Below are positions 22,766 through 61,698 of a stretch of DNA of 64,000 bases, in pieces (the stretch's first letter is position 1; the number at the start of each line of letters is the position of its first letter). Below the pieces are notes generated by a model. It did no database searches, was not told the origin of the DNA, and was given only the letters and a program-made list of their open reading frames with translations. A program made the translations under genes and the position numbers. This DNA comes from Trypanosoma brucei (Eukaryota), in assembly GCA_000002445.1 (NCBI GenBank), contig CH464491.1, positions 3,360,001-3,424,000 of the forward strand, in the 5' to 3' direction.

Positions 22766-22930
22766 GATTGCGATGGAAAGTGCCTCCGAGTGTGCAAGTG
22801 TATACAATTGTGTTGAGGGAGCCCAGCAATCGGATGATAATAGTTATTTCCTTTCCTTTTAATTATGTCGTTATTTTGCTTCCTCACGCACAGTGATATT
22901 CCTTCCTTGTTCCTTCGTTCCTCCGTTTTA

Positions 22931-28517: not shown

Positions 28518-30450
28518 CACCTCACCGGAAATTCAACCACTGATGTTGATATTGACTCGGAGAGGTCAGCACACAGCTATTACCGGTGCCTTCTTATCCT
28601 TTCCTATCCAGAACCCAAAACGCCCCCACCTCTTTTTCACTAATCCTTGCTCGTTACTATGACTACGCTGCACAAAGAAATACCGTTTGCAAGCCTGACA
28701 AATGGGGAAAAGGGCTACAGAGTGGAGCACTACAGTGGAAAATACGTGTGCGGTATAAGCACACAGCGACAGGAAGACACAACAGCCTCGGTCAGTTCGT
28801 TACAAACCCCAGAAGCTCAGAGATGCGGTACCTTCATACCCAACAGGTATGCACAAGGCAGCAACATACAGAAACGAGTTGAAGAAAGGAAAAAAGGAAA
28901 AAAGGAAAAAAGTAAGCAAACAATTACATACTTGGGAAGTGCTATGCCTCTTCAAAATACAGAAACGTGCTCGGCGCACCACCAATATCATATTAGACAA
29001 GAATGCCGTGCAGCGCCGGCCGCAACGCTCCAAATCACTTTAACGTCCACACAACGAAATACCGGAATGACGCTGAAAATGGTAGTAGCGCTTGGAGCGA
29101 AGCGCCCACCTACGCTATTTCCCGAAAACAAGCACAAATACAGGCAGTAATCTGCAATAGCTCAATGAAGGCGGTAAAGCACATGAGATACAGCTAACGG
29201 AGTTCGTAACGGCCAAACATAATCGATCCAACAGCAAGGACGAGCATCCCCACCGCAGAGGCTGAGAACGCAGCAGCCTCCTTCCACTCGGATATACCTC
29301 CCTCCTGCACGTACGCTGCAGCAACAGCGGGAGAGCAGCGCTGCAGCGCAGCAAGCATTGCCTCATGCCGATTCTGGCGCTGCTTGTGCATGTCGTCCAA
29401 AAGTTTCCGCACGTTGAATAACATTAAACGCACCCTGTCTTGCATCTGTTGAAGAAGGTCATTCGGGGCGGAAACTCCACTCGACAGGACCCGTGACTCA
29501 CCCGAACCTTCGCAGTGCTCGTGGCGCGGTGACACCATCAAACAATCCAGCTCCTCCCCGACCGCGTCGATTCGGGCTTGCAGTAAACGAAGATTCTCAT
29601 CTTGCCGTTTCCATGTCCCCTCAGCCCTCATTACACGGCGCTTATAATCACTTGCAGCAGCCTGCAGCTCTGTGCGCGCCCCATAGTTATCCCCTGAGTC
29701 GCTGTGCCTCTCAGCTAGTTGCATCACACGCTTGAAATGCCGAGCCTCCTTTATGCACGGAGCGATCTGTGAAACAACCTTGCCACAGCGCTGAATATCC
29801 CTTTCGATTGCCTTAATCTTCCTCAGTAGCAGCACGATTGGAGCACCCAGCGATTGCAGAGCAGAGATGTTATAGCTTTCCGCATTCTCCCCGGCACCCT
29901 CATCCGAGTTCGTTGTATGACAAAATTCACCATCCACCGCACGTTTGCTCCGTCTCCTCCGCTGGGAGGGTCGGTCATGAAGAACAGTGCCAAGTTCAGA
30001 ATGTCCGTGAACAGCACAGTCAAACTCAAAATAATCTTCCGCCAGTCCGCTCTCAGCACCCACGACAGATGTATCATAGGAACTATCAAGGGCATCCTCC
30101 AAACTACATGACCCCTCACCTTCTGAAAAATTAGCAAGCTTTGCCTGCGCAAAATCAACGTCAACAGAACAAGATTTTTCGTTCGGGGAACATGTGAGCT
30201 TTACCACATTTTTCGAAATGTCCCTCCCTGCATTTATTTCATTCAACTGCTTCATTAGTACAGCGTTTTCTTCCTTGAGTTTTCCAAGTTCAGTATGAAA
30301 AGGGTCACTAAACTTGGCACCACCCTCCATTTCATTAAGGTTTTCAGGCGCCTCTTTCGAATAATGCTCCTCAGCAAGTTGCTTTTTCAGTTCCTTCTCC
30401 AGTGCTGCCTTAGAACCAGCCACATCACTCAGTTGCTTCCTCAGTTCCCT
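28196..30450 (-). repeat. Segmental duplication copy 1. It contains the 5' end of the membrane-protein gene, a 670-bp intergenic region, and the 3' domain of the coiled-coil repeat gene. It is duplicated at 32630-34890 (period 4434 bp).
   Basis: 28196-28360 equals 32630-32795. 28430-29190 equals 32870-33625. 29194-30400 equals 33629-34840. A short divergent patch lies at 28360-28430 versus 32795-32870. Confidence 0.85.
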
Positions 30451-32949
30451 CAGTTCCTTCTCGAGTGATGATTTGGAACCAGCCACATCACTCAGTTGCT
30501 TCCTCAGTTCCTTCAGTTCCTTCTCGAGTGATGATTTGGAATCAGCCACATCACTCAGTTGCTTCCTCAGTTCCCTCAGTTCCTTCTCGAGTGATGATTT
30601 GGAATCAGCCACATCACTCGGTTGCTTCCTCAGTTCCTTCAGTTCCTTCTCGAGTGATGATTTGGAACCAGCCACATCACTCAGTTGCTTCCTCAGTTCC
30701 TTCAGTTCCTTCTCGAGTGATGATTTGGAATCAGCCACATCACTCGGTTGCTTCCTCAGTTCCTTCAGTTCCTTCTCGAGTGATGATTTGGAACCAGTCA
30801 CATCACTCAGTTGCTTCCTCAGTTCCTTCAGTTCCTTCTCGAGTGATGATTTGGAACCAGTCACATCACTCAGTTGCTTCCTCAGTTCCTTCAGTTCCTT
30901 CTCGAGTGATGATTTGGAACCAGTCACATCACTCAGTTGCTTCTTCAGTTCCTTCAGTTCCTTCTCGAGTGATGATTTGGAACCAGCCACATCACTCAGT
31001 TGCTTCCTCAGTTCCTTCAGTTCCTTCTCGAGTGATGATTTGGAATCAGCCACATCACTCAGTTGCTTCCCCAGTTCCTTCTCGAGTGATGATTTGGAAT
31101 CAGCCACATCACTCAGTTGCTTCCTCAGTTCCTTCAGTTCCTTCTCGAGTGATGATTTGGAACCAGTCACATCACTCAGTTGCTTCCTCAGTTCCTTCAG
31201 TTCCTTCTCGAGTGATGATTTGGAACCAGCCACATCACTCGGTTGCTTCCCCAGTTCCTTCTCGAGTGATGATTTGGAACCAGTCACATCACTCAGTTGC
31301 TTCCTCAGTTCCTTCAGTTCCTTCTCGAGTGATGATTTGGAACCAGTCACATCACTCAGTTGCTTCCCCAGTTCCTTCAGTTCCTTCTCGAGTGATGATT
31401 TGGAACCAGCCACATCACTCAGTTGCTTCCTCAGTTCCTTCAGTTCCTTCTCGAGTGATGATTTGGAATCAGCCACATCACTCAGTTGCTTCCCCAGCTC
31501 CTTCTCGAGTGATGATTTGGAACCAGCCACATCACATAGTTGCTTCCTCAGCTCCTTCAGCTCCTTCTCGAGTGATGATTTGGAACCAGTCACATCACTC
31601 AGTTGCTTCCTCAGTTCCTTCTCCAGTGCTGCCTTAGAACCAGCCACATCACTCAGTTGCTTCCTCAGCTCCTTCAGCTCCTTCTCGAGTGATGATTTGG
31701 AACCAGTCACATCACTCAGTTGCTTCCTCAGTTCCTTCAGTTCCTTCTCCAGTGCTGCCTTAGAACCAGCCACATCACTCAGTTGCTTCCTCAGCTCCTT
31801 CAGCTCCTTCTCGAGTGATGATTTGGAATCAGCCACATCACTCAGTTGCTTCCTCAGCTCCTTCAGCTCCTTCTCGAGTGATGATTTGGAATCAGCCACA
31901 TCACTCGGTTGCTTCTTCAGCTCTCTCTCTATCAATGTATTAGAATCATTCACAGCACCTAGCTGCTTTTTTGTTTCCTTCAGTTCGTTTTCTATTAGAA
32001 CCTTGGTGTCATTCACATCAGCAAGTTGTTTCCTTAGTTCCTTCAGTTCTTTTTCAATTAAAGCCTTGGAGTCATTTACATCACTTAGTTGCCTCCTCAG
32101 TTCCTTCAGTTCCTTCTCCAGTGATGATTTGGAATCAGTCACATCACTCAGTTGCTTCCTCAGCTCCTTCAGTTCATTTTCCATTAACGCCTTAGAATCA
32201 TTCACCCCACCGAGTTGCTTCTTTATACTGTCACTGCTTTCACCCTTTAGTTGACACTCAGGGCCACTTGATTTCTTTGTTTTTGTCTCAACTATCAGTT
32301 CATCCAGCTCCTTCTCGAGTGACGCTTTAGAATCAGTTACTTCCAGTAGTTGCTGTTTCAACTCCTTAAGTTCTTTTTCCATTAACGCCTTCGATTCGCT
32401 GAGGTTCCTTAATTGTTCTTCAATGTTGGAAAGGGAAGATGATTTCTGCTGATCTCCCTCTGTGTTGTGGCATCGTTCCTTTAAACTGTCCACTTTTCTG
32501 TGCATATCAAATTCCACTGCAGAAGTATCAGTAGCTTCGCTTCTACGGGCGCTTCCTTTCGAGTTCTCTCTTGTGCCGAACCTCTCATCCACTTGAGAGT
32601 TTGCATCAAGAGCACCGCATTCAATTGTCTGTCTGCCGCTTGAAAATGCACCCGCAGTAGTGAAGCGGGACATACTATGCGATGAAGAGCGTGCTGAAAA
32701 TATTGTTGCGCCCCTTCGGAAATCCCTTCCAGTAGAGTGCCGTGCTAAATACTCCTCATTTTCAATCACCGCTCTACTGATAGTTTCAGTCTTCACAAAA
32801 AGATCCTCCCAGGATGTGGAAACAGAATCATTTTCATCCGAACCCCTCGTTTTCCTCTTTTGCTCCACAAGACTCGCACCGTCACTTGCAGCAAGGCCGT
32901 GGTCCGACCCATCTACCTCTTGGCTGCCGAACCACGTTTTACTCTCCAT
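29194..32949 (-). CDS. Chimeric coiled-coil repeat protein, ~1251 aa. Its N-terminal ~100 aa are identical or similar to the membrane-protein N-terminus. It then has degenerate and near-perfect 21-aa repeats and a C-terminal domain ending in a hydrophobic tail anchor.
   Basis: A continuous ORF. The ATG at 32949 is in the same context as 28517. The repeat core is (S)LEKELKELRKQLSDV[AT][GD]SKS. The C-terminus (...AVGMLVLAVGSIMFGRYELR) is a predicted TM tail anchor. Confidence 0.65.
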   Translation of the reverse strand: MESKTWFGSQEVDGSDHGLAASDGASLVEQKRKTRGSDENDSVSTSWEDLFVKTETISRAVIENEEYLARHSTGRDFRRGATIFSARSSSHSMSRFTTAGAFSSGRQTIECGALDANSQVDERFGTRENSKGSARRSEATDTSAVEFDMHRKVDSLKERCHNTEGDQQKSSSLSNIEEQLRNLSESKALMEKELKELKQQLLEVTDSKASLEKELDELIVETKTKKSSGPECQLKGESSDSIKKQLGGVNDSKALMENELKELRKQLSDVTDSKSSLEKELKELRRQLSDVNDSKALIEKELKELRKQLADVNDTKVLIENELKETKKQLGAVNDSNTLIERELKKQPSDVADSKSSLEKELKELRKQLSDVADSKSSLEKELKELRKQLSDVAGSKAALEKELKELRKQLSDVTGSKSSLEKELKELRKQLSDVAGSKAALEKELRKQLSDVTGSKSSLEKELKELRKQLCDVAGSKSSLEKELGKQLSDVADSKSSLEKELKELRKQLSDVAGSKSSLEKELKELGKQLSDVTGSKSSLEKELKELRKQLSDVTGSKSSLEKELGKQPSDVAGSKSSLEKELKELRKQLSDVTGSKSSLEKELKELRKQLSDVADSKSSLEKELGKQLSDVADSKSSLEKELKELRKQLSDVAGSKSSLEKELKELKKQLSDVTGSKSSLEKELKELRKQLSDVTGSKSSLEKELKELRKQLSDVTGSKSSLEKELKELRKQPSDVADSKSSLEKELKELRKQLSDVAGSKSSLEKELKELRKQPSDVADSKSSLEKELRELRKQLSDVADSKSSLEKELKELRKQLSDVAGSKSSLEKELRELRKQLSDVAGSKAALEKELKKQLAEEHYSKEAPENLNEMEGGAKFSDPFHTELGKLKEENAVLMKQLNEINAGRDISKNVVKLTCSPNEKSCSVDVDFAQAKLANFSEGEGSCSLEDALDSSYDTSVVGAESGLAEDYFEFDCAVHGHSELGTVLHDRPSQRRRRSKRAVDGEFCHTTNSDEGAGENAESYNISALQSLGAPIVLLLRKIKAIERDIQRCGKVVSQIAPCIKEARHFKRVMQLAERHSDSGDNYGARTELQAAASDYKRRVMRAEGTWKRQDENLRLLQARIDAVGEELDCLMVSPRHEHCEGSGESRVLSSGVSAPNDLLQQMQDRVRLMLFNVRKLLDDMHKQRQNRHEAMLAALQRCSPAVAAAYVQEGGISEWKEAAAFSASAVGMLVLAVGSIMFGRYELR
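30370..31915 (-). repeat. 63-nt tandem repeat array (~24 units, some 54-nt variants) encoding 21-aa coiled-coil repeats. Degenerate units continue to ~32420.
   Basis: The unit is ccagccacatcactcagttgcttcctcagttccttcagttccttctcgagtgatgatttggaa, read on the plus strand. Confidence 0.9.
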
Positions 32950-34890
32950 CACCTCACCGGAAATTCAACCACTGATGTTGATATTGACTCGGAGAGGTCA
33001 GCACACAGCTATTACCGGTGCCTTCTTATCCTTTCCTATCCAGAACCCAAAACGCCCCCACCTCTTTTTCACTAATCCTTGCTCGTTACTATGACTACGC
33101 TGCACAAAGAAATACCGTTTGCAAGCCTGACAAATGGGGAAAAGGGCTACAGAGTGGAGCACTACAGTGGAAAATACGTGTGCGGTATAAGCACACAGCG
33201 ACAGGAAGACACAACAGCCTCGGTCAGTTCGTTACAAACCCCAGAAGCTCAGAGATGCGGTACCTTCATACCCAACAGGTATGCACAAGGCAGCAACATA
33301 CAGAAACGAGTTGAAGAAGAAAGGAAAAAAGGAAAAAAGGAAAAAAGTAAGCAAACAATTACATACTCGGGAAGTGCTATACCTCTTCAAAATACAGAAA
33401 CGTGGTCGGCGCACCACCAATATCATATTAGACAAGAATGCCGTGCAGCGCCGGCCGCAACGCTCCAAATCACTTTAACGTCCACACAACGAAATACCGG
33501 AATGACGCTGAAAATGGTAGTAGCGCTTGGAGCGAAGCGCCCACCTACGCTATTTCCCGAAAACAAGCACAAATACAGGCAGTAATCTGCAATAGCTCAA
33601 TGAAGGCGGTAAAGCACATGAGATACAGCTAACGGAGTTCGTAACGTTTATATACAGTAGATCCAACAGCAAGGACGAGCATCCCCACCGCAGAGGCTGA
33701 GAACGCAGCAGCCTCCTTCCACTCGGATATACCTCCCTCCTGCACGTACGCTGCAGCAACAGCGGGAGAGCAGCGCTGCAGCGCAGCAAGCATTGCCTCA
33801 TGCCGATTCTGGCGCTGCTTGTGCATGTCGTCCAAAAGTTTCCGCACGTTGAATAACATTAAACGCACCCTGTCTTGCATCTGTTGAAGAAGGTCATTCG
33901 GGGCGGAAACTCCACTCGACAGGACCCGTGACTCACCCGAACCTTCGCAGTGCTCGTGGCGCGGTGACACCATCAAACAATCCAGCTCCTCCCCGACCGC
34001 GTCGATTCGGGCTTGCAGTAAACGAAGATTCTCATCTTGCCGTTTCCATGTCCCCTCAGCCCTCATTACACGGCGCTTATAATCACTTGCAGCAGCCTGC
34101 AGCTCTGTGCGCGCCCCATAGTTATCCCCTGAGTCGCTGTGCCTCTCAGCTAGTTGCATCACACGCTTGAAATGCCGAGCCTCCTTTATGCACGGAGCGA
34201 TCTGTGAAACAACCTTGCCACAGCGCTGAATATCCCTTTCGATTGCCTTAATCTTCCTCAGTAGCAGCACGATTGGAGCACCCAGCGATTGCAGAGCAGA
34301 GATGTTATAGCTTTCCGCATTCTCCCCGGCACCCTCATCCGAGTTCGTTGTATGACAAAATTCACCATCCACCGCACGTTTGCTCCGTCTCCTCCGCTGG
34401 GAGGGTCGGTCATGAAGAACAGTGCCAAGTTCAGAATGTCCGTGAACAGCACAGTCAAACTCAAAATAATCTTCCGCCAGTCCGCTCTCAGCACCCACGA
34501 CAGATGTATCATAGGAACTATCAAGGGAATCCTCCAAACTACATGACCCCTCACCTTCTGAAAAATTAGCAAGCTTTGCCTGCGCAAAATCAACGTCAGC
34601 AGAACAAGATTTTTCGTTCGGGGAACATGTGAGCTTTACCACATTTTTCGAAATGTCCCTCCCTGCATTTATTTCATTCAACTGCTTCATTAGTACAGCG
34701 TTTTCTTCATTGAGTTTTCCAAGTTCAGTATGAAAAGGGTCACTAAACTTGGCACCACCCTCCATTTCATTAAGGTTTTCAGGCGCCTCTTTCGAATAAT
34801 GCTCCTCGGCAAGTTGCTTTTTCAGTTCCTTCTCCAGTGCTGCCTTAGAACCATTAACATCACTCAGTTGCTTCCTCAGTTCCTTCAGTT
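32630..34890 (-). repeat. Segmental duplication copy 2 (partner of 28196-30450)
   Basis: See copy 1. Near-identical over ~2.2 kb except one ~70-bp divergent patch. Confidence 0.85.
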
Positions 34891-37800
34891 CCTTCTCGAG
34901 TGATGATTTGGAACCAGCCACATCACTCGGTTGCTTCCTCAGTTCCTTAAGTTCCTTCTCGAGTGATGATTTGGAACCAGTCACATCACTCAGTTGCTTC
35001 TTCAGTTCCTTCAGTTCCTTCTCGAGTGATGATTTGGAACCAGTCACATCACTCAGTTGCTTCCTCAGCTCCTTCTCCTTCTCGAGTGATGATTTGGAAC
35101 CAGTCACATCACTCAGTTGCTTCTTCAGTTCCTTCTCTCGAGTGATGATTTGGAACCAGCCACATCACTCAGTTGCTTCCTCAGTTCCTTCAGTTCCTTC
35201 TCGAGTGATGATTTGGAATCAGCCACATCACTCAGTTGCTTCCCCAGTTCCTTCTCGAGTGATGATTTGGAACCAGCCACATCACTCAGTTGCTTCCTCA
35301 GTTCCTTCAGTTCCTTCTCGAGTGATGATTTGGAACCAGTCACATCACTCAGTTGCTTCCTCAGTTCCTTCAGTTCCTTCTCGAGTGATGATTTGGAACC
35401 AGTCACATCACTCAGTTGCTTCTTCAGTTCCTTCAGTTCCTTCTCGAGTGATGATTTGGAACCAGCCACATCACTCAGTTGCTTCCTCAGTTCCTTCAGT
35501 TCCTTCTCAAGTGATGATTTGGAACCAGTCACATCACTCAGTTGCTTCTTCAGTTCCTTCAGTTCCTTCTCGAGTGATGATTTGGAACCAGCCACATCAC
35601 TCAGTTGCTTCTTCAGTTCCTTCAGTTCCTTCTCGAGTGATGATTTGGAACCAGCCACATCACTCGGTTGCTTCCCCAGTTCCTTCTCGAGTGATGATTT
35701 GGAACCAGCCACATCACTCAGTTGCTTCCTCAGTTCCTTCAGTTCCTTCTCGAGTGATGATTTGGAACCAGTCACATCACTCAGTTGCTTCCTCAGTTCC
35801 TTCTCGAGTGATGATTTGGAATCAGCCACATCACTCGGTTGCTTCCTCAGTTCCTTCAGTTCCTTCTCGAGTGATGATTTGGAACCAGCCACATCACTCA
35901 GTTGCTTCCTCAGTTCATCCGGCTCCTTCTCGAGTGATGATTTGGAATCAGCCACATCACTCAATTGCTTCCTCAGTTCCTTCAGTTCCTTCTCGAGTGA
36001 TGATTTGGAACCAGCCACATCACTCAGTTGCTTCCTCAGTTCCTTCAGTTCCTTCTCGAGTGATGATTTGGAATCAGCCACATCACTCAGTTGCTTCCTC
36101 AGTTCCTTCAGTTCCTTCTCGAGTGATGATTTGGAACCAGCCACATCACTCAGTTGCTTCCTCAGTTCCTTCAGTTCCTTCTCGAGTGACGATTTGGAAT
36201 CAGCCACATCACTCAGTTGCTTCCTCAGTTCCTTCAGTTCCTTCTCGAGTGATGATTTGGAACCAGCCACATCACTCAGTTGCTTCCTCAGTTCCTTCTC
36301 GAGTGATGATTTGGAATCAGCCACATCACTCAGTTGCTTCCTCAGTTCCTTCAGTTCCTTCTCGAGTGATGATTTGGAACCAGCCACATCACTCAGTTGC
36401 TTCCTCAGTTCCTTCTCGAGTGACGATTTGGAACCAGCCACATCACTCAGTTGCTTCCTCAGTTCCTTCAGTTCCTTCTCGAGTGATGATTTGGAACCAG
36501 CCACATCACTCAGTTGCTTCCTCAGTTCCTTCTCGAGTGACGATTTGGAACCAGCCACATCACTCAGTTGCTTCTTCAGTTCATCCGGCTCCTTCTCGAG
36601 TGATGATTTGGAACCAGCCACATCACTCAGTTGCTTCCTCAGTTCCTTCTCGAGTGACGATTTGGAATCAGCCACATCACTCAGTTGCTTCCTCAGTTCC
36701 TTCAGTTCCTTCTCGAGTGATGATTTGGAACCAGTCACATCACTCGGTTGCTTCCTCAGTTCCTTCAGTTCCTTCTCGAGTGATGATTTGGAATCAGCCA
36801 CATCACTCGGTTGCTTCCTCAGTTCCTTCAGTTCCTTCTCGAGTGATGATTTGGAACCAGCCACATCACTCAGTTGCTTCCTCAGTTCCTTCTCGAGTGA
36901 TGATTTGGAATCAGCCACATCACTCAGTTGCTTCCTCAGTTCCTTCAGTTCCTTCTCGAGTGATGATTTGGAACCAGCCACATCACTCGGTTGCTTCCTC
37001 AGTTCCTTCAGTTCCTTCTCGAGTGATGATTTGGAATCAGTCACATCACTCAGTTGCTTCCTCAGTTCCTTCAGTTCTTTTTCCATCAATGCCCTCGACT
37101 CTGTCACCTTGTTCAGCTGCTTTTTTAGCTCCTTTTCTAGAAGCGTCATTGATCCAGTCATCTCGCTGAGTTGCTCGTTTAGTCCCCTCATTTCTCCTTT
37201 CAATGACGCCTCTAATTTTTCTCTGTTCATTTCTTGCTTTTCATTTTTCTTTTTGTCTTGAAGGTGGTTTTGTGACATCTGTTCATCGCATTGCGCCGTA
37301 TGGAAAATTGCCGTTGAAGTATTGCCAGACTGCCTTATTTTTTCCTCACAGTTTTTTGTGATGCTGTGCAGCTGTCGACTGCTATCTCTCGTTTGGTTAA
37401 CATCTTTGTGTGACTGAGCAATTGGTTGCATCCGCTGCCGTTTCGAATCTGCATCGGCGCACGATGATTGCTGTGGAGAGTCTTCATTTCTAAGGCGGTG
37501 GTGGCGCACCTGCAGTGGACTTTTGTCGAGGTGGCCCCACTGTGATCGGGTAATTTTACCCTCGTCGCGCTTTGCACTGTCGTGCACCGGGGAACTACTT
37601 TCACCTTGATGGATATAACGTGCACGATAGGGCGTACTGGTTCTGATTGTTGACCTCGCTGAAGGGCTAGATCGCGGAGATGGGCGGTGGAGCCCAGAAC
37701 CTGGGGATCCGTTTCTGCACAAAACGGTAGTGAACAGATTACATAGCCTTGCGTACTGGTCGCTGGTCAGGTCAACAGTGTCCTGAGAACGTTGTGACCG

Positions 37801-39024
37801 ACCGATGGTACAGAGCACACTTGAGTGTAAGATACGTTGGTGCTGCCGAGTTAACGATCGGACCCATGTCTTGGCAGCAAATCTTTCCACCGACACAAAT
37901 TCATCGTAGGCCCGCGGCGGAGTACATGCACGCTCGCTTGGATGAACATGATCCATTCTCGGTGCTCGAGCCCCATAGCGGCTTGGGCTCTTCCATCGGG
38001 AACAAGCTACCCCACGGTGATCAGTGTTTTCAAGGCGTTCGTAGTTATTCCATAATGAACGTATTTCTCGTGTAATGACATCCAACCGCTTGCGCACTTG
38101 TTCTACACGGTGTTGAAGATGAGTCGCGTCCTCGCCGGACTGTTGCACATCGCGTAAGTGGTGCTCGTGCCAATTCACGCAAATCATCCTCATATTAGCC
38201 ACGACCCACTGTTGCACGGAGCCAAGTGCATGACTCCCTTTGAGGGCTTCCTCGTACGTAAAGTTCAGAGAGTTAGTGTACTGTGAAACGAGTTCGTCGT
38301 GGCACTCCTTGCTGATGGTCAGCGGGTCAAACTGCATCAGCACCTGCAGTATCCCAGCACGGTGCAGAAAAGGCTGCATCTCACTCCATGTGCGCCTCCT
38401 CTCACCAAGCAGTACCATTACTAATCCCATGACACGCACGACAATATCCGGGGGTGTTCGGTACGACACAAGCTCTCTCCAATGCCGAGCATCGACCTGG
38501 CGCACCACGTGGCAGGCGTGCCTAAGCTGCATCTCAGCCTCTCGCTTCTTCGTGGCAACATCCAGATTTTTCATAGAAAGCTCACGATATAATTTTGCGC
38601 GCTCTTGCGAAAGCCGAACCGCTTCGTCTCTGTGCTGAATCAGCTGGGACTGTAGAGGAGGAATCCGTAGCAGAAGTTCGCGTCCCTCCTCCGTCGTTAC
38701 GGCAGCCAGGGCTTTTGTCAGCGGGCAGGCACCTCCCTCCTGATCACTTGGTACCAGAGGTTCTATGTACAAAGAGCGGCAAACAACATCGCTGCACACA
38801 ATTCCTAGGCTGCAACGCCACATGCCAGAAGATCGCTCAATGTATTCATACGCCACAATGTCGTCAGGGGCGACCTGAGGAAAGGAGTCCTGCCGCCACT
38901 GGAACTCCTCCAACCCCGATAAAAATTCACCATCGTCGCCCACGGCAAATAGTGGTGCTATAGTAAGGATTGAAGGTTGGTCACTGCCTGCCATTGTGCC
39001 TTCTTCTGGTATATTTACCTCCAT
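33629..39024 (-). CDS. Giant tail-anchored coiled-coil repeat protein (~1800 aa if contiguous). It has a ~690-aa N-terminal globular/coiled region, ~36 x 21-aa repeats and a C-terminal domain with a TM anchor. It is interrupted by a +2 frameshift at ~35125-35140 (the ORF track splits it into 33629-35107 and 35125-39096).
   Basis: The ATG at 39024 gives MEVNIPEEGTM.... The track start at 39096 is a TTG. The C-terminal 400 aa are near-identical to the C-terminus of 29194-32949. One repeat unit at 35101-35162 reads ttccttctctcgag instead of ttccttctcgag (an extra tc). Confidence 0.6.
34805..37075 (-). repeat. 63-nt tandem repeat array (~36 units, including 54-nt variants lacking the KEL codons). 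Degenerate units continue to ~37260.
   Basis: Same unit as the 30370-31915 array. Variable sites a/g, c/t and t/c give D/G, A/T, R/K/G and L/P alternatives. Confidence 0.9.
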
Positions 39025-40343
39025 TACGTAGCCTCCCCCTCTCTGTACTTCTAGCTGTTTAGGTTGTTTTCCCCTTTCACACACTCGATCACACAACCCA
39101 CACCCTTGACTATCCTCGCCGGTCGGTTGTACGACTTTCAGAATCCTTCTTCCCCAGCTTCACCACAAATGATAGACTTCACCAACTGTGTCTGACGGCC
39201 GTGTTCACCCACACGCTTAACTCTTCACAGGTAAAAAAACACTACCAACACCTTCGATACTGTTTTTACTACCCACTCTTTCCTTTACCCTCCCCTCGTT
39301 CACTTTACAAAGTCGCTCAACTTCGCGCACAAGCAAATAAAATACAAATGTATGTATATATTTATATTTATGTATGCGTATATATGTATATCCTCTGCTC
39401 TCTTTCGTTAACCCACTCTTCCCTCACTCACTTTCCCGATACGTGCTGTACTTTTTGTTTTGTTTAGTGGAGCGGCACAGGTCACCTCCTCAGAAATAAA
39501 AAATAAAATAATGACACTAATAATAACGACCGTCTGTGATGTTCAGACGATTTTCTTTCACTTGATTTAGCTATGTAAGTGTTCGATAACAACTAAAACC
39601 TTTCTTTGTCCACTCGCTTTTTTCTTGTCAACGGTACAACGGAATATGAGAAAATAAAAAAAAATAACACGGTACACACTTTCGCTCCTTACTTTCTTTT
39701 GTTGATGTTGGTGTTGGCACTGGTTACTTCCACCTGTCTTGTTTCGTTTAGCTGTTCTGGGATCGAGTCCTTTTAAAATGGAAGAGAGAATAACACTCCT
39801 TTGCCTTTAAGTTGTTGTTTTTTTTTTTTCGTCGATCCTTATCTTTCCTTTTCTCGCTTCCACAGCTTCCCTTTGTCACTAATAACGACTGACAACGCAG
39901 TGAAGTCACAGGCTACCTTTATCGGCTCCCTCAGCGGGTGAGAAATCAAGAGATGTGAGAGAGAATGGGGATGTTGGTGCATTGCTTCACGGCATACAAA
40001 AAATAAAAATCGTAGGGGAGATAAGCAAAGGGGAAAACAGGCGCGTCATGAGCGAAATGAGCCTGTGATTTAAAATTTAAAAAAACGGCCAACGAAGACA
40101 GCACCCTCCGCACTGCTACATGTGTCCATTTCAAACAGAAACAGGCTAACAAAGGATAAAACGATGAGACACCGGCAGGGTTAATCCTGCACACGCCCTT
40201 GTGCCGCTCCATACCACCAACTCCGCTATCTGCCACCTTCATTGTAGTACACGTTACGCACCCACCAACAGCAGTGTCAGAAGAGGAAGAAAAGATAGGA
40301 GAAGAAATGTAATGGTAAATTCTCTCAGCACAAATTCATTACA

Positions 40344-40985
40344 CTAGCCCTTCCACGTTGCTTTCCGCCCAGTAGTGCGGTCATAGAGGCGGGTAATAGC
40401 TTCCATTACGAGACGCATGCGGTACTTAATACGCAACGCCTCCTTACTAAGCCGCGCCGCCCTCTCACGCAACAATCTCTCGCGCCTCTGCAAAAAGACG
40501 AGTGCCTCATCACGGAACATAGGTAGCACAACCCCGCAACCAAGGTTCACCCACATCCGGCTGGCATCTGTCACCGTGCACTGCACGAAAAAGTGATTAC
40601 CCAAGTCAACCATTATGTGATTACGTTGTTGTACACTGACATCTCCAGAGGTGCTTCCTGCACCCCTCACTACAGTTGCATTACCTACAGATTGTTTGCC
40701 TTCCCCCGCCGCCACTGCTGCCGACACTGTCAGGGCTGTAGACGACCCCTCGTCACGCCTAATAAATGAGTGTGTAGAGGAAAGAGACTGCATCTCATCG
40801 AAAAGACTGCGCAACTGACAACAATTGGAGGCCATGTTGTACACTTCGTCCCTCTGTGCCAGGACCCGCGCTAACGATTGTCGTAATACGGCATCCAAAA
40901 AGTGCTCCAGCCGTAGCATACTCCCCATAGCCGCATCCGCTGGCGCATGAGAGGGGTCACTTTCCCCCCTTGACACACCAGACAT
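40344..40985 (-). CDS. Prefoldin-alpha-like (UXT/prefoldin family) small coiled-coil protein, ~213 aa
   Basis: The ATG is at 40985 (the track start is a TTG). Coiled-coil N- and C-terminal segments flank a central double beta-hairpin (IMVDLGNHFFVQCTV...MWVNLGCGVVLPM), which is typical of prefoldin alpha-class subunits. Confidence 0.45.
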   Translation of the reverse strand: MSGVSRGESDPSHAPADAAMGSMLRLEHFLDAVLRQSLARVLAQRDEVYNMASNCCQLRSLFDEMQSLSSTHSFIRRDEGSSTALTVSAAVAAGEGKQSVGNATVVRGAGSTSGDVSVQQRNHIMVDLGNHFFVQCTVTDASRMWVNLGCGVVLPMFRDEALVFLQRRERLLRERAARLSKEALRIKYRMRLVMEAITRLYDRTTGRKATWKG

Positions 40986-41870
40986 TACAACTAGCGGCAA
41001 TTATGCGGCAACAAACAAAACACAGCTCACCCTCCGTGTCACCAGCACGCTGTCCCCGCAGGCTTTCTTCAAACGGGAAAAATAGCGGAATGTCAAAAGG
41101 GGCAGACACTGCAGCAGTGCGTTACAACTAGGCGCTGGCTGTTGCTAACTCGGAACTCAGTAACCAAGGGAACCCTACGCAGTGCTAAGCAATCAGTAAA
41201 GCGCAATTACTAGAAAAACTGAGCAAATAACCGCAAAAGACGTAAGGTAAGATAAAAATGGGGAAACCTAGTATTTCTGTCTGTGCATTTACCAGTTTCG
41301 TTATCGAACTGACCGGGCACGTAGAGCCTGGCTTGGAGATGGGGTAATAAAAGGAAAACATCTCACTCATAATATAGAGATTGTTTCACTGTTCTCACCC
41401 CCAATCCTCCATGCCCGTCCGCAAGATGAAGGAATCCAGAAAGAAAAAAAAAAACATATACAAAAGGGGTGTTGGAAACCAGAGTGACAACCCTCATTGC
41501 TCCGGAAAACACCGATGCACAATTAATCGGCAACCAAATGGCGATATCACCGTTCACACACACGCATACACACAAACATAACCCGCTCCCATCACGTTGG
41601 ACACCAGCACCACCGCTTACGTGCGATAGACAGCTAATGCACAGAAGCTCCTCCGAGGGCGCCAACCCAACTTGACGCAGCCCACGAGCTCCCAACCAAC
41701 ACCGTCAGTGATAATTCACACGTGTCGCTCGAACGCCACCATCAAATTTCGGTGCTGATGCAGAACAAAAGAATGGGATCCTTACCGCAACAGATTGAAC
41801 GCTAGCAAAAAGTCCTCCGCGCGCGGACCCCGCCTCTTTGTCTTACCGCTCGTCTCATAACTAAAAGCAA

Positions 41871-43163
41871 CTACAAGTCGTTCATGCTATGCGGGTCCGC
41901 ACCAGCATCAAGCACAATCTCGCCCACCTTTTCATCAAGGTGGAAGCGCGCCCACACCCTCCGATCATGGCCGTGCTCGTCAAAATACTTCAATAACAGT
42001 GACAGCAAGCTGTCCTCCACAGCTCGACGCAGTGCGTGACCATTTTCACGTCCCTCCCATACCTCGCGATACCTTTCTACAAGGAATGATACAGCAACAT
42101 CATCAATGCTACTCGCAACGACGCCTCCGCCGTATGCATTTGGGCCCGCGAATCCATAGCGATACGCGGTGCACGGAAGAGTTATCACAGTAGTCCGCAC
42201 CATTTCCTCTGCTGAGCGCTTCGAAAACGCCGCAAACGCCAGTGTCCGCACGAATGCAGGCACAAAGGAGCCATACAGAGAATTGAACTCCATCCGCACC
42301 ATCTTCTCAACCTCCACCACGCTTTTCCCAAATGTGCGACCTTGCTTCCCAAAGTCTGTTGTGACTATCACAGTGAGTTCTTTAAGTGATGGTAAGTCGG
42401 CGGCCTGCCCCTCGAAGCGGTCCGCACGACCAAACAGCGGCGCGAGCAGCGCAACAAGCGAAGGGTGCATGGCGTTAAGGTCGTCCAGCAGCACGATACC
42501 GTGAGGGTACTTGCGCTGGTGCTCAGTGATTTTCCTTACCAAGAGGTTCAAACCATCCCTTCCCTCCAGGCCACCAAAGCCAGTACCGGATATGACGAGC
42601 ATATTGTCACCAGAGTCACACTGCCGCCCACGCGAGTTCGCACAGCGCAGCGATGTGGCCAATGACAGTAACCGAGCAGTATGGGTCTTACCGACGCCGT
42701 TATCGCCAGCAAAGTGGAGAACGAGAGGCTCATGTGGGTACGAAAGCTTCTTGCGCATTAGGGAAGCAATAGCTTCGGTTAGATGCCCCTGGCCCACTAG
42801 GCGGGTGCGCAGAAGCTCTTCCACGTTGCTTATCGCAAGACGGCGCGCCTTGTCATCAGTTGCGAAGGGCAACTCCCGTGACACCAATCTGGAAGGAAGC
42901 TTGGACATCCAACAATAAAGTTGGCTGCTGCTCAACCACTTGTACCTCGAGCAGACGGGAGCCGGGGGACAGGTCGGCTCACTGGTGTCCGCTACAACCT
43001 CATCCACCGTACTTCGTACGTCAGCCCCTGCTACGGAGGGTTCTACCGCGGTTAGAAGCACGCATAGGAACAGAATCACAAAGAGGGAAACGGAAGAGTG
43101 TCTATCATCCCCCTCAACACCAACGACAGAAGAAGAGCCAAACGGGTATCCCGAATGGGGCAT
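41871..43163 (-). CDS. Torsin-like AAA+ ATPase with N-terminal signal/anchor sequence (~430 aa)
   Basis: The ATG is at 43163 (the track start is a GTG). There is an N-terminal hydrophobic segment LFVILFLCVLLTAVEPSVAGA. LVGQGHLTEAIASLMRKKL...PLVLHFAGDNGVGKTHTARLL aligns with the torsin segment LFGQHLAKKII...[21 protein letters not shown]. The Walker-B region IVLLDDLNAMHPSLVALLAPLFG resembles [23 protein letters not shown]. The torsinA reference sequence is quoted from memory. Confidence 0.6.
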   Translation of the reverse strand: MPHSGYPFGSSSVVGVEGDDRHSSVSLFVILFLCVLLTAVEPSVAGADVRSTVDEVVADTSEPTCPPAPVCSRYKWLSSSQLYCWMSKLPSRLVSRELPFATDDKARRLAISNVEELLRTRLVGQGHLTEAIASLMRKKLSYPHEPLVLHFAGDNGVGKTHTARLLSLATSLRCANSRGRQCDSGDNMLVISGTGFGGLEGRDGLNLLVRKITEHQRKYPHGIVLLDDLNAMHPSLVALLAPLFGRADRFEGQAADLPSLKELTVIVTTDFGKQGRTFGKSVVEVEKMVRMEFNSLYGSFVPAFVRTLAFAAFSKRSAEEMVRTTVITLPCTAYRYGFAGPNAYGGGVVASSIDDVAVSFLVERYREVWEGRENGHALRRAVEDSLLSLLLKYFDEHGHDRRVWARFHLDEKVGEIVLDAGADPHSMNDL

Positions 43164-43680: not shown

Positions 43681-45942
43681 TTATTTAGGTGGCCCTCGAG
43701 GTGGCCCAAAATCATCACCACCCGGGTGTGGATTTTGCTCCATGTTAGCCACCACCCTCGACGTGATGCCACCCACGTCGTTCCACACACCGCTCTCCGC
43801 CGCTCGAGTACCAAACTTCGCGCGCCCACCTTTCCTCCGTGCAAGAAGACCTCGCCGGAACCACACAGCTTTCCATGTGATAGCGTCCATTACACGCTGC
43901 TGCTGCCGTGGTGGGACACCGCCGTGCACACCAGTGGTCTGTGGATGGAAAAGAGGCCTCCAAGTGGCGTTATGTCGTAGATATGTTCGTTCCAAGTGCG
44001 CAGGAATCGTCTTCTGGGTTATAAGCGATACGTAGGACCGTGCAATAGCGTTCAGCTTGTGCGTGCGCCACTCAGCGTAGCGTGGCTCCATCATGTGTCG
44101 CTTCCAGTTACTAATGCCCTCTAATGGGAGCTGCTTTTGAAGAAAAGCGCGCACGGCAGACACAATGACTCCTTGTCGTTTGGTGTAAAGACTGTATACC
44201 TGGCCCAGACGACCTTGCCGTGCGGTGCGGCCCGCACGGCTGAGGTAAGTGAGTGCGTTCGTGGGCATGTCGAAGTTTACAACGAAGTCCACATGCAGAT
44301 CAAGGCCTCGCGCAGCAACATCGGTGGAGCACAAGATGTTGGTGCGTCCGGAAGCAAAGTCGGCGAACATGCGTCGCCGCACAGCTGCCGGCAGGGCGGC
44401 GTGTAGCAATGAGCATGTGTAACCGCAGCCGCGCAGCCGGTGATACACTGCAGTTGCACAATCAATACCACGTGTAAAAATAATACAGCGTTTGCCGTCG
44501 GCAAATACGGTGCGCGGCACGTGACACGTGAACGGGGCCGCAACAGTTGTGAGGTGCTCCCAGTGCACTGGGCGTACCCCTTCCAGGGCGTGGCGGACCC
44601 TCTCCTTCATTTCATCTGCATTATCACCTTTCGCACCGAAGCCGGATCGGTTTTCCTCTACTTTGTAGTTGCTGACATCACCAGAAGTGGAAGAAAGGGT
44701 GGCAATTGGTGTCTCACCTTCGTGATCATGCCTCTCCATCCGAGGCCGCCTCCGCAAATGAAGACCCCGTAGCTCCACGAGCTCCTCGAATGACCCCGAC
44801 AAATAGTGCAGCTTCGAGTAAGCCTGCTCTTCCTCAATATCTGTAAGTATTTCCCGAGGTCGGTTGCCGTGTTTTTTGAGTAGGTGCTGCAACGTGTCCA
44901 TCTTCTCTTGTTCACGTTCCACCGGCAGAAAACGGTGGCGCAGGGTGCCCGGTGGTCTGTGCATGCGTTGGCGACGTATGCACGTGACTGCATCAGGGTA
45001 CTTCTTCCCAACAACAAACTCCAGCTTCCTAGTTATGAAAGCGGTCGCGAATACCGTTTGGGTCTGTACCGGCCACAAGTGTTTAAACATTACACGCTTC
45101 TGCACCTTCATCAGAAGATGCACGGCATCATGATCGTGCTGCGAGGATAGCATGCCGTCTGCCTCGTCCACCGCAACATAACGCAGATCATCCAGAAAGA
45201 CACGTCTCGCCCGGATGAGACGGAGAACTATCTTTGGGTCCATAATCATAACATCCACAAGCTGTTGCTTGAGCAACCGACTTAAACGGTGATTGGCACG
45301 CTTGCGGGAGGTGAAGGAAATCGCGTGAAGTCCTGTGGCTTCCCCCAGCACGGAGCACACGTGGTGTAGCTGCGCAATAAGTTCGCGGGTTGGTGCTAAT
45401 AGAATCATGCGAGGTCGGCGCTCACGCAGTGGTATCTTGTACACATCCCTGTCCTTTATCATGTTCTGATAAAGAGGGAGGAGATACGCCAGAGTTTTCC
45501 CCTCGCCGTGCGGGGCGGCAACAACAGTATCTTTGCGCTGCATTATCACCTCGACAGCAGACTGCTGAATGGGCGAAGGTGTTGTAATGCGCAGTTGCCG
45601 GAGGGCGCTGCGCAGTTCAGGGTAGAGTGACATGTCCTCAAAGCTCGTGACAGTTTTTGTCTTGATATTCTTGCTCAACAGTGGCGAATTATGCGTGCTG
45701 GAGGGTGAAAGGCTCTGCAGCACAACATCACTGACGAGGTGATTTGAGCGCTCACCAACGGAACGACTGAACGTCCCTCCGTACGCCTTCAGCTGCTGAG
45801 GAACGATAATACCGCGGGATGTAGTAAGGAGCACACCACTGCAGTTCAACAACGTTGTCAGTGCGACGGAGCGCACAAAACTGCGCCGCGCCCGCGTCCA
45901 GTGAGCGGTAGGGTGCAGTAAAACTATGTTGCGTCGTCCCAT
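43681..45942 (-). CDS. DEAD-box ATP-dependent RNA helicase (753 aa), probably mitochondrial
   Basis: The ATG is at 45942. A Q-motif region (FEDMSL...TPSPIQ) is followed by Walker A AAPHGEGKT, a DEAD box (VAVDEADGML) and motif VI LSRAGRTARQGR. The Arg-rich N-terminus (MGRRNIVLLHPTAHWTRARRSF) looks like a mitochondrial presequence. Confidence 0.8.
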   Translation of the reverse strand: MGRRNIVLLHPTAHWTRARRSFVRSVALTTLLNCSGVLLTTSRGIIVPQQLKAYGGTFSRSVGERSNHLVSDVVLQSLSPSSTHNSPLLSKNIKTKTVTSFEDMSLYPELRSALRQLRITTPSPIQQSAVEVIMQRKDTVVAAPHGEGKTLAYLLPLYQNMIKDRDVYKIPLRERRPRMILLAPTRELIAQLHHVCSVLGEATGLHAISFTSRKRANHRLSRLLKQQLVDVMIMDPKIVLRLIRARRVFLDDLRYVAVDEADGMLSSQHDHDAVHLLMKVQKRVMFKHLWPVQTQTVFATAFITRKLEFVVGKKYPDAVTCIRRQRMHRPPGTLRHRFLPVEREQEKMDTLQHLLKKHGNRPREILTDIEEEQAYSKLHYLSGSFEELVELRGLHLRRRPRMERHDHEGETPIATLSSTSGDVSNYKVEENRSGFGAKGDNADEMKERVRHALEGVRPVHWEHLTTVAAPFTCHVPRTVFADGKRCIIFTRGIDCATAVYHRLRGCGYTCSLLHAALPAAVRRRMFADFASGRTNILCSTDVAARGLDLHVDFVVNFDMPTNALTYLSRAGRTARQGRLGQVYSLYTKRQGVIVSAVRAFLQKQLPLEGISNWKRHMMEPRYAEWRTHKLNAIARSYVSLITQKTIPAHLERTYLRHNATWRPLFHPQTTGVHGGVPPRQQQRVMDAITWKAVWFRRGLLARRKGGRAKFGTRAAESGVWNDVGGITSRVVANMEQNPHPGGDDFGPPRGPPK

Positions 45943-46475: not shown

Positions 46476-47660
46476 TCACACAGCCACGAGTGCCTTTGTG
46501 GCCATCTGCAACGCTCCTTCATAGGTTTTGTTTCCACCGATAAACCCAGACACATGGACAAAAACGCATCCCTCCACACCACTAGCCTCGCTCAGATCGG
46601 CATCCCGAATTCCTTTCCAAGGCAACGGCTTGCGACTTTCAAAACTCACAGCGTCCTTCGGTACCGCCTGCACGCGCCAGCCACTTTTATCAGAAAATAG
46701 AACGTAGAGCACGTGACCAACCTTCCCGTGCTCGGCTTCGATCTCCAAGAGGTGGTCCTTCCACGGGCAGAAGCGCTCCTTCAGGACTATAATGCGGCCA
46801 CTCGGGTGCACGCTCTCAGCGGCGTGGAAAGCGTCCTCAACAAGGCCACGGGCAGGCATCCATGAGAACGTAAAGAAATGAACAGCGGCCACAAACTCGG
46901 AGAGAGCCAACTCCACCGCTTGCAAGAAAGCGGTGTTCTCGCTCTCGGGATTGCCGTCACCACCTTCATTCCACCAAGGCATTAGCCGCCCAATTCGATC
47001 TGATAGAGTCGTCGTGACAGCGTAATTACGAACGCACGAAGCAGACTGGGCATCAGCAGAGCATCCACTTGCGGTAACTGTCTCTGTCGCGGGTCCGAAG
47101 GAGTTAACACCGTTATCTATTCCGTCGATGTGTTCCACAAAGTTTTTATATACAATGTCAAAAACAGTGTCGAGTTCAGCCTCACTCAAGTTTTTCCTAC
47201 TCTCAGACCAGCTTCCCATCTTCAGGAGTTCTGCACGGTACGAAGAAGAAAGCGCCGCCTCAACATAGCGCTGGATTATCTCGCGTCCGAAGTGCTTATA
47301 GACAAGGCCAGCAGAGGACAAACGCGTTCGGTACATGGATTTCGGGGTTTTCATCGTGTCATGGAAGGTCGGCTGATGGTGGTCAAAGCGTAGCGCATCC
47401 GCGTCATACACACCTCCGACATCCACCACAATACTGCACCGGTCCAAAGTCTTAGCATCACGCGTACGTAAAACATTTGCCGCACGGAACTGTCCACTAC
47501 AACGTAGCATCCCACAAGCTAGGGCTTCATCACAGTGGAAAGAACCGTTATGCGTGCCGATCACAGGAAAGGAGCTCGTGTCTACATCCGCCAAAGACGG
47601 AAGTACACGAAGCCCGGAGAGTTGCCTCACAACAAACTCAGCCATATGCCCCCGAGACAT
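46476..47660 (-). CDS. MYG1/UPF0160-family metal-dependent hydrolase (exonuclease), 394 aa
   Basis: The ATG is at 47660. The hallmark segment IGTHNGSFHCDEALACGMLR...IVVDVGG...FDHHQ matches the MYG1 family. Confidence 0.85.
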   Translation of the reverse strand: MSRGHMAEFVVRQLSGLRVLPSLADVDTSSFPVIGTHNGSFHCDEALACGMLRCSGQFRAANVLRTRDAKTLDRCSIVVDVGGVYDADALRFDHHQPTFHDTMKTPKSMYRTRLSSAGLVYKHFGREIIQRYVEAALSSSYRAELLKMGSWSESRKNLSEAELDTVFDIVYKNFVEHIDGIDNGVNSFGPATETVTASGCSADAQSASCVRNYAVTTTLSDRIGRLMPWWNEGGDGNPESENTAFLQAVELALSEFVAAVHFFTFSWMPARGLVEDAFHAAESVHPSGRIIVLKERFCPWKDHLLEIEAEHGKVGHVLYVLFSDKSGWRVQAVPKDAVSFESRKPLPWKGIRDADLSEASGVEGCVFVHVSGFIGGNKTYEGALQMATKALVAV

Positions 47661-60803: not shown

Positions 60804-61698
60804 AGCTGTCAAAAAATGTTGGTAACACTGCTCTCAATCACTTTAACCGAGCAAAAATTAAATAAAGCTATCCCACAAGGACAAATTTCCTTCCTGAGTC
60901 CAGCTTCTTCCTGCGTCCCTCCACGAACAGACAACGAGTGAGTTCCTCTCGGCCACAGCACGCACACAAACTACAACAATATATATAGAGTTAACCACTT
61001 ACGCTTATTAGAACGTAACTCTCCTCACACCCAAACAAACAAAACACGATACCGCGTTACCTGCGATATCACGGAGAGTTGGCTGCTAAGTCACCTTCTC
61101 ACTCGACTTACTCTCGCTCCTCTAATATTCCTGTGATCGAAAATATTCTCCACCAACTTTATGATTGCTCACTGAGTGCAGTGAAACGCCTACAGCTTTT
61201 ACTGCACCTTAGATGTGGAGTGAATATCTTGCAGCGGCTCCCTTAACCTTCTTGTGCTCCTGGGACGAACAATAAGCCGTGAGAAACTTTGTGCGTTCAC
61301 TTAAGAGTTGGAGGCTGACGGAGTAACACAACGTCGAATAGAGAGAGAGCTTCGCAAAGCCGTGAGTGCAGAGAAGGTAAATACCGCAAAGTATCTGATC
61401 CTATAATTAACAATACCTCTAAGTGATGACTGTGGTACTCCCCTAAAAAGGTACAGATGGTTTCACAGACCACGGTGAAACAACTAGATACCTGAAACAA
61501 CAGGAACGAAGGCAGAATTTGGAAGAATTTTTTGTAAGCCGAAGCGAATGATAAGGCAATGGTAACCAACAGAAATACAAAACATCAACATGTCAGGTCA
61601 ATAAAAACATAAAGACCACTGTCAGTGAACGAAATAAATAAATAAAACTTTAACAAGATAATCCGCAGATAACCGCTAAGCATGAAGTGATAGGTACA

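Follow-up and report, generated by a model that had tools for sequence, protein, structure and literature searches.

The stretch of DNA analyzed here (the window) comprises 64,000 nucleotides of the Trypanosoma brucei genome (assembly GCA_000002445.1, contig CH464491.1, positions 3,360,001 to 3,424,000). The open reading frame (ORF) at 41871–43163 on its minus strand encodes ERIKA, one of the "ER-implicated kinetoplastid ATPases", where ER stands for endoplasmic reticulum. With a probability of about 0.72, the product is the ERIKA orthologue understood as a predicted ER-lumen AAA+ protein of the Clp-D2 type, which would form a torsin-like sister or ancestral lineage and whose ATPase would be slow or dependent on a partner. 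The protein is known from a computational study (PMC10903960, PLoS Comput Biol 2024), and the present analysis mainly refines that report.

Gene Identity

The ORF starts with ATG at 43163, ends with the stop codon at 41871–41873 and encodes a product of 430 amino acids (aa). Orthologues are found across the trypanosomatids at E-values of 1e-77 to 1e-196 (T. congolense, T. vivax, T. cruzi, Leishmania, Leptomonas, Strigomonas and others), and thus the ORF is a real, conserved gene and not a chance reading frame. Its product is 100% identical to TEOVI_000178300 of Trypanosoma equiperdum, present on assembly GCA_001457755.2. The T. congolense orthologue shares 72% identity with it, and the Leishmania orthologues are matched at E~1e-85.

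The preliminary description of this DNA, made from the letters alone, regarded the protein as an undescribed trypanosome homolog of torsin. The protein had in fact been listed already. PMC10903960 defines ERIKA as torsin homologues with a signal peptide and a KDEL-equivalent signal, and names L. infantum A4HU03 and T. brucei Q382P2 ('torsin homolog') among the members. In the supplementary tables of that study the C-terminus of Q382P2_TRYB2 is GADPHSMNDL, given as an ER-retention motif, and in its alignment the N-terminus of Q382P2 reads MPHSGYPFG-SSSVVGVEGD..RHSSVSLFVILF. Both termini of the ORF product match (C-terminus GADPHSMNDL, N-terminus MPHSGYPFGSSSVVGVEGD...), and therefore exactly this protein has been reported, in silico only. 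The published account and ours agree on a signal peptide, an x-D-L signal and a torsin/Clp-type AAA+ module. Nuclear-envelope reviews covering both torsin and Trypanosoma mention no trypanosome torsin.

The Wider Protist Family

When 1.84 billion cluster representatives were searched with a profile, 72 of them reached E<=1e-30 and 403 reached E<=1e-10. Clp-type sequences (GPTGVGKT, TSN) enter the matches at approximately E=1e-25 and are frequent below E=1e-17; no GKN-type torsin was found among the top 150 matches. The family set used below consists of 140 proteins pooled from the orthologue search and the profile search. Common to this set are the Walker A context H-[FL]-A-G-D-N-G-V-G-K-[TS] and the sensor-1 pattern T-[ST]-D-[FL]-G. 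Judged by these sequence matches, ERIKA belongs to a family that comprises at least 140 clusters; those members that carry a name are from Euglenozoa and Amoebozoa, namely, outside the kinetoplastids, the euglenid Entosiphon and the amoebozoans Balamuthia, Cavenderia, Acytostelium, Polysphondylium and Planoprotostelium (annotated 'torsin A'). An N-terminal hydrophobic segment is present in 74 of the 95 family members outside the ERIKA clade.

Kinetoplastids also contain a paralogue of approximately 370 aa that lacks the KDEL-type signal and has N-D or N-E in Walker B and Arg at sensor-2. It occurs in T. cruzi, T. rangeli, T. conorhini, T. theileri, T. grayi, T. melophagium, T. congolense, T. 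vivax and Strigomonas; one sequence from Logan (P0321, from the paralogue set P0037, P0320, P0045 and P0321) is 68.8% identical to the T. congolense copy. No named match from the T. brucei group or Leishmania was returned for it, and it may be lost or unannotated in Trypanozoon. This paralogue was considered as a donor of the arginine finger that ERIKA lacks (see below) and rejected, since its own finger column is Ser.

Domain Architecture and Fold

The 430 aa hold one AAA+ module and no other Pfam domain. The module has the D2-type AAA+ fold with the D2-small subdomain. The AlphaFold2 (AF2) model (mean pLDDT 80.7, pTM 0.77) consists of a lone N-terminal helix, a poorly ordered linker and the AAA+ large and small domains, both complete; aligned to ClpA/ClpB by profile and by hhalign, the protein matches up to the end of the small subdomain. 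A single-module AAA+ protein of the Clp-D2/torsin lineage with a predicted N-terminal ER-targeting segment, as the preliminary description had it, remains the appropriate outline.

Compared alone with PDB sequences, ERIKA matches the second nucleotide-binding domain (NBD2) of ClpB, ClpC and ClpA at E down to 2e-8, with no torsinA match at E<=1. With a profile of 28 family sequences, ClpC/ClpB NBD2 is matched at E~1e-17 over nearly the whole module, and torsin-1A only at E=0.027 over 60 residues. The single-sequence Pfam scores (AAA 18.6 bits, AAA_2 16.9, Torsin (PF06309) 16.5) are all sub-threshold, the cut-off for PF06309 being 27 bits, and TOR1A_C (PF21376) gave no match at E<=1 in the Pfam scan. 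Classification by single-sequence Pfam/NCBIfam scans was dropped, since they yielded only sub-threshold AAA, AAA_2, Torsin and Clp matches.

Cysteines, Predicted Signal Peptide and Predicted ER Targeting

The expected N-terminal hydrophobic signal or anchor segment is present as the sole hydrophobic segment of the protein, at residues 22–41 (HSSVSLFVILFLCVLLTAVE). Its Kyte-Doolittle hydrophobicity peaks at 2.97 over 15 aa, with 19-aa windows up to 2.39, and no 19-aa window outside it exceeds 1.6. In the AF2 model the lone helix spans residues 23–38. The segment is followed near residues 45/46 by the small-residue cleavage context S-V-A-G/A (the slash marks the putative cleavage point); in the L. 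infantum orthologue, SignalP6 cleaves after the equivalent ...TVAG (PMC10903960).

Six cysteines of the mature part (C65, C71, C84, C174, C182 and C331) are kept in 31–32 of 32 ERIKA orthologues; C65, C71 and C84, which lie in the linker, are conserved at >=90% in alignment A1. The C-terminus has the form x[DE]L in 28 of 31 ERIKA orthologues. It is the combination of these features (a lone N-terminal hydrophobic segment, the SVA(G)/A site, six conserved Cys and x[DE]L C-termini) from which ERIKA is predicted to be a soluble protein of the ER lumen. A mitochondrial or cytosolic Clp fragment was also considered and rejected, in view of the predicted signal peptide, the pattern of conserved Cys and the terminal x-D-L.

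According to PMC10903960, a KDEL-like signal outside the kinetoplastids is found in an Acanthamoeba torsin only. In contrast, 54 of the 85 full-length members of the wider family other than ERIKA end in x[DE]L, amoebozoan and euglenid proteins included. The C-terminal variants seen in these non-ERIKA members (proteins P0045–P0182) are KDEL, HDEL, RDEL, TDEL, xSEL and xxDL.

Catalytic Site

The column equivalences to Clp D2 were taken from hmmsearch and hhalign and are consistent with the secondary structure of the model. Walker A (GDNGVGKT) ends in Thr and not in the Asn of torsins, and the Walker B acidic pair (IVLLDD) is DD instead of DE, both as first read from the sequence. Lys and Thr/Ser of Walker A are present in all covering family members (139/140), with Asn never found at the last position. 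The first Walker B acid is Asp in 32/32 ERIKA orthologues; outside this clade, 76 family members have Asp and 29 have Asn. The second, which corresponds to the catalytic Glu, is likewise Asp in 32/32 ERIKA orthologues, and elsewhere in the family Glu (53) and Asp (52) are about equally frequent.

Asp270 of the sensor-1 strand (IVTTDFG) occupies the position of Asn in Clp and torsin proteins, and Asp is found here in 134 of 140 family members. In DnaA, an Asp at sensor-1 is what makes the binding of nucleotide exceptionally tight (Kawakami et al. 2006, cited in PMC4661922), and the DnaA-like residue therefore suggests switch-like behavior of ERIKA. The column of the Clp D2 arginine finger is occupied by Ala303 and is never conserved as Arg (A/S in ERIKA, S/L/K/N/A/Q elsewhere in the family). 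In the sensor-2 region, N374-G375-H376 aligns with G-A-R of Clp; His376 replaces the sensor-2 Arg, and no Cys is present. This His is shared by 30 of 31 ERIKA orthologues, with Arg in 77 of 87 other members. Finally, G195-F196-G197-G198 aligns with the GYVG pore loop of Clp D2, F196 lying opposite Tyr (hhalign). An F/Y residue at position 196 is kept in 31/32 ERIKA orthologues and 84/108 other family members, and the loop between beta2 and alpha2 is much shorter than in Clp D2.

Walker-B DD, sensor-1 Asp and sensor-2 His agree with the suggestion of a divergent, possibly catalytically distinct active site; the fully canonical catalytic site of PMC10903960 is not supported by these motif states. 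Across the family, sensor-2 His is found only alongside Walker-B DD (36/36 cases), and sensor-2 Arg accompanies DE, ND, DD or NE. D228 (42480–42482) and H376 (42036–42038) look like a coupled change of two catalytic positions.

Proposed Mode of Action

In the preferred reading ERIKA is composed of a putative cleavable signal peptide, a short Cys linker, one Clp/Hsp100-D2 AAA+ module with a full small subdomain, and the terminal MNDL as a putative retrieval signal. The protein is expected to bind ATP-Mg, since Walker A retains its Lys/Thr and Walker B its Asp, and it probably oligomerizes as other AAA+ proteins do. Luminal polypeptides, as possible clients, may be gripped via the conserved aromatic loop at F196. 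ATP turnover is predicted to be slow or reliant on a trans-acting partner because the Arg finger is missing and the Walker-B Glu, the sensor-1 Asn and the sensor-2 Arg are replaced by Asp, Asp and His, respectively. Such a protein could serve as a nucleotide-gated ER chaperone or remodeller instead of an autonomous threading motor.

Relationship to Torsins and Clp D2

The preliminary description aligned the protein with torsin over three regions. In a single BLASTP comparison with human TOR1A (whose sequence was checked against PDB 6OIF/5J1S, residues 51–332 matching), ERIKA residues 105–252 pair with TOR1A 52–195 at 22% identity and E=5e-4. The pre-Walker-A helix, Walker A and Walker B with MHxxL are covered by this alignment, but the high-scoring segment pair ends before sensor-1. 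The sensor region also aligns, though it is reached only in profile-profile comparison, where the kinetoplastid-family profile and vertebrate torsins align to family position 276, past sensor-1, at E=1e-9.

Local profile-profile alignment with hhalign compared four groups, namely the kinetoplastid (K) and the distant (B) members of the family, Clp D2 (C) and vertebrate torsin-1A/B (T), with scores of 418 (K-B), 292.6 (B-C), 243 (K-C), 188.6 (B-T), 140.8 (T-C) and 77.5 (K-T). The nearest profile of vertebrate torsins is thus the protist family (B-T) and not Clp D2 (T-C), and Clp D2 lies closer to torsins than the kinetoplastid branch does. Taken singly, distant members reach 40–61 bits against vertebrate torsins, roughly matching or exceeding what they score against Clp. 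The Pfam Torsin gathering score is exceeded by P0148 (37.7 bits), P0133 (31.0), P0103 (29.9) and P0037 (27.6); some paralogues and amoebozoan members pass PF06309, and other members pass AAA_2. Among the kinetoplastid members, 17 of 28 match Pfam Torsin at E<0.01.

In neighbor-joining (NJ) bootstraps torsins stand beside the distant members in 69/100 replicates and between the family and Clp D2 in 30/100; the tree has no outgroup beyond Clp D2, cannot test the monophyly of torsins plus the family and is used as supporting evidence only. Together, the hhalign scores and the NJ tree would fit metazoan torsins as a fast-evolving offshoot or sister of the protist family. The two also share a Cys, aligned at the N-terminal edge of the AAA+ domain. 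Shared ancestry with torsins is suggested by these comparisons, not proven.

No AAA+ proteins other than torsins are described for the lumen of the ER and nuclear envelope; torsins are conserved in metazoans, have a GxxxxGKN Walker A, lack the Arg finger and conserved aromatic pore loops, and depend on LAP1/LULL1 (PMC7175109). A 2025 preprint finds them in most metazoans and reports their absence from plants and fungi. With these proteins ERIKA shares the (predicted) ER-lumen targeting and the absence of the Arg finger. It differs from them in Walker A (GKT versus GKN), Walker B (DD versus DE), sensor-1 (Asp versus Asn) and sensor-2 (NGH versus GCK with its redox-active Cys). Unlike metazoan torsins, it has an aromatic residue at the pore-loop position and a KDEL-type signal. 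Past sensor-2 it continues for 54 residues, retaining the Clp-type C-terminal helix and beta-hairpin, whereas TOR1A has only 12. The Pfam torsin thresholds (PF06309, PF21376) are not reached.

Over the whole module, small domain included, ERIKA is matched best by NBD2 of Clp/Hsp100 proteins (ClpB, ClpC, ClpA; human CLPB/Skd3), whether by sequence, profile or structure. The canonical Walker A is shared with them, and the GFGG loop aligns with their GYVG. However, their catalytic set (DE, Asn, Arg finger, GAR) is replaced in ERIKA by DD, Asp270, Ala303 and NGH. The N-domain, NBD1, M-domain and ClpP-docking loop of Clp/Hsp100 are absent from ERIKA, a single-module protein targeted to the secretory pathway (by prediction), with a shortened pore-loop region.

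Membership in the torsin family, as claimed in the preliminary description, holds in part: the ER-lumen prediction and the missing Arg finger speak for it, but the GKN, GCK, pore-loop and small-domain features and the Pfam scores do not. The comparison with ClpB-D2, proposed there as a check, ranks Clp D2 above torsinA in both sequence-profile and fold searches. This weakens torsin membership without showing unrelatedness, because Clp D2 is the parent clade of torsins themselves. ERIKA is placed here within the Clp-D2 lineage, as an ER member resembling torsins, and is not counted among the canonical torsins, since it fails on GKN, GCK, the pore loop, the truncated small domain and the Pfam thresholds.

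Alternative Explanations

Several observations weigh against the preferred reading. The kinetoplastid profile is nearer to Clp D2 (243) than to torsin (77.5), and the NJ tree has the limit given above. Some AAA+ ATPases tolerate non-canonical Walker B pairs. Arg306, three residues past the finger column in strand beta5 and kept in 29 of 32 ERIKA orthologues, could act in trans. The AlphaFold superposition of PMC10903960 led its authors to describe ATP coordination as 'perfect' and the enzyme as active. A literature search on Q382P2/ERIKA found no localization, ATPase or phenotype data.

The proximity to Clp D2 would be expected if a Clp/Hsp100 D2 module had been recruited independently into the protist secretory pathway, the likeness to torsins being convergent and the two having no common ER-resident ancestor. 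This appears rather unlikely: the best profile partner of torsins is the protist family and not Clp D2, Arg-finger loss, ER-lumen targeting and the aligned boundary Cys are common to both groups, and several members (P0148, P0133, P0103 and P0037) pass the Pfam Torsin gathering score. The same shared targeting and finger loss could be taken to mean a bona fide torsin orthologue similar to torsinA, that is, an ER/perinuclear protein with negligible intrinsic ATPase that serves nuclear-envelope and nuclear-pore biogenesis and requires a LAP1/LULL1-like finger donor. Such an orthologue is unlikely, given GKT in Walker A, the lack of a GCK redox sensor-II, the full-length Clp-like small domain, the conserved pore-loop aromatic, the absence of a PF21376 match with a PF06309 score of 16.5 bits, and PDB profile E-values of 0.027 for torsinA versus 1e-17 for ClpC/ClpB. 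In addition, the LAP1/LULL1 cofactors are described for metazoans only (PMC7175109). Quite improbable is a disaggregase or unfoldase of the ER that is active on its own and, in the manner of ClpB or Skd3, passes its substrates through a hexameric pore. It would agree with the aromatic loop and with the active enzyme proposed in PMC10903960, but the finger column is never conserved as Arg in the family, Asp stands in for the catalytic Glu, nearly all ERIKA orthologues have His for the sensor-2 Arg, and the beta2-alpha2 loop is much shorter than that of Clp D2.

A broader interpretation is offered tentatively, at somewhat less than even odds: the whole family, with its Euglenozoa, Amoebozoa and many environmental members, may be an ancient ER-lumen AAA+ 'proto-torsin', of which ERIKA is one tip. 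The proto-torsin state would have combined a canonical Walker A, a Clp-like small domain, the pore-loop aromatic and a KDEL-type signal with an Arg finger already lost. The ERIKA clade would then have moved further (Walker-B DD, sensor-2 His) toward a slow or non-hydrolyzing state.

Feature Coordinates and Genomic Context

Coordinates of the ERIKA gene, its parts and its neighbors are collected in Table 1. Every large credible ORF of the window is on the minus strand, the arrangement expected of a single polycistronic unit in a trypanosomatid. The gene neighborhood was rejected as functional evidence: the prefoldin, DEAD-box helicase and MYG1 genes are functionally unrelated, as expected in a polycistron.

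Table 1. Features of the ERIKA gene and adjacent genes (window coordinates; residues refer to the 430-aa product).
Feature	Coordinates	Strand	Basis
Complete coding sequence, 430 codons and stop; T. brucei-group ERIKA orthologue (TEOVI_000178300 / Q382P2)	41871..43163	minus	uninterrupted ORF, homology
Predicted signal peptide, residues 1–45/46: long n-region, h-region VSLFVILFLCVLLTAV, c-region EPSVA(G)/A	43026..43163	minus	hydropathy, orthologue SignalP6, AF2 helix
Cys-containing linker, residues 47–103, motif C65-PxxP-x-C71 ... Y-C84	42855..43025	minus	conservation
AAA+ large (alpha/beta) subdomain, residues 104–311	42231..42854	minus	
Walker A GDNGVGKT, residues 153–160; canonical Lys-Thr, D-N as family hallmark	42684..42707	minus	motif conservation
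GTGFGG loop between beta2 and alpha2, residues 193–198	42570..42587	minus	hhalign columns
Walker B IVLLDD, residues 223–228; Asp in place of catalytic Glu	42480..42497	minus	conservation
Sensor-1 strand IVTTDFG, residues 266–272; Asp270 where Clp and torsin have Asn	42348..42368	minus	alignment
Arginine-finger region AFVR, residues 303–306	42246..42257	minus	hmmsearch and hhalign to Clp D2, model secondary structure
AAA+ small subdomain, residues 312–421; conserved C331, long helix 375–397, C-terminal beta-hairpin 402–421	41901..42230	minus	model and profile alignments
Sensor-2 region ENGHALRR, residues 373–380	42024..42047	minus	hhalign
C-terminal MNDL, KDEL-type ER retrieval signal of the trypanosomatid x-D-L kind (predicted)	41874..41885	minus	orthologue C-termini, PMC10903960
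Prefoldin subunit, neighbor	40344–41000		
DEAD-box helicase, neighbor	43681–45942		
MYG1-family protein, neighbor	46476–47660		

Several other ORFs of the window were recorded. Two tandem 340-aa ORFs (560–1582 and 2373–3395, minus strand) match the ribonucleotide reductase small chain (Pfam E=1e-109 to 1e-111) and represent a tandem gene duplication. A giant ORF of 3969 aa (7600–19509, minus strand) matches the CFAP54 N-terminal domain at E=2e-10 and probably encodes a flagellar central-apparatus protein. The transcription unit of ERIKA also includes a prolyl-oligopeptidase-family S9 protein (oligopeptidase B-like; 20618–22807, minus strand) and a P4-type phospholipid-translocating ATPase (56094–60812, minus strand). 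The large ORFs at 29194–32952 and 35125–39096 (minus strand) encode coiled-coil proteins, according to many Pfam coiled-coil matches of low specificity. Antisense open ORFs are found at 30465–32254 and 34908–37261 (plus strand), and the AT skew swings strongly between 26 and 38 kb; these antisense ORFs are taken to be artefacts of biased or repetitive composition.

Biological Significance

The molecular function of torsins, reported from metazoans and reviewed as the sole AAA+ ATPases of their compartment, is still debated. Human torsin is the dystonia protein, and ERIKA is its distant cousin. A tractable protist relative that lacks the Arg finger and has Clp-like features could show the ancestral role of an ER AAA+ protein, and also whether cofactor-dependent activation predates LAP1/LULL1. 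For the trypanosomatids, ERIKA is a predicted ER-resident protein that is conserved throughout the group and divergent from the torsins of the host. If the proto-torsin interpretation is true, torsins would not be an animal invention, and the loss of the Arg finger would be older than LAP1/LULL1, which would imply trans-activators or switch-like action in protists.

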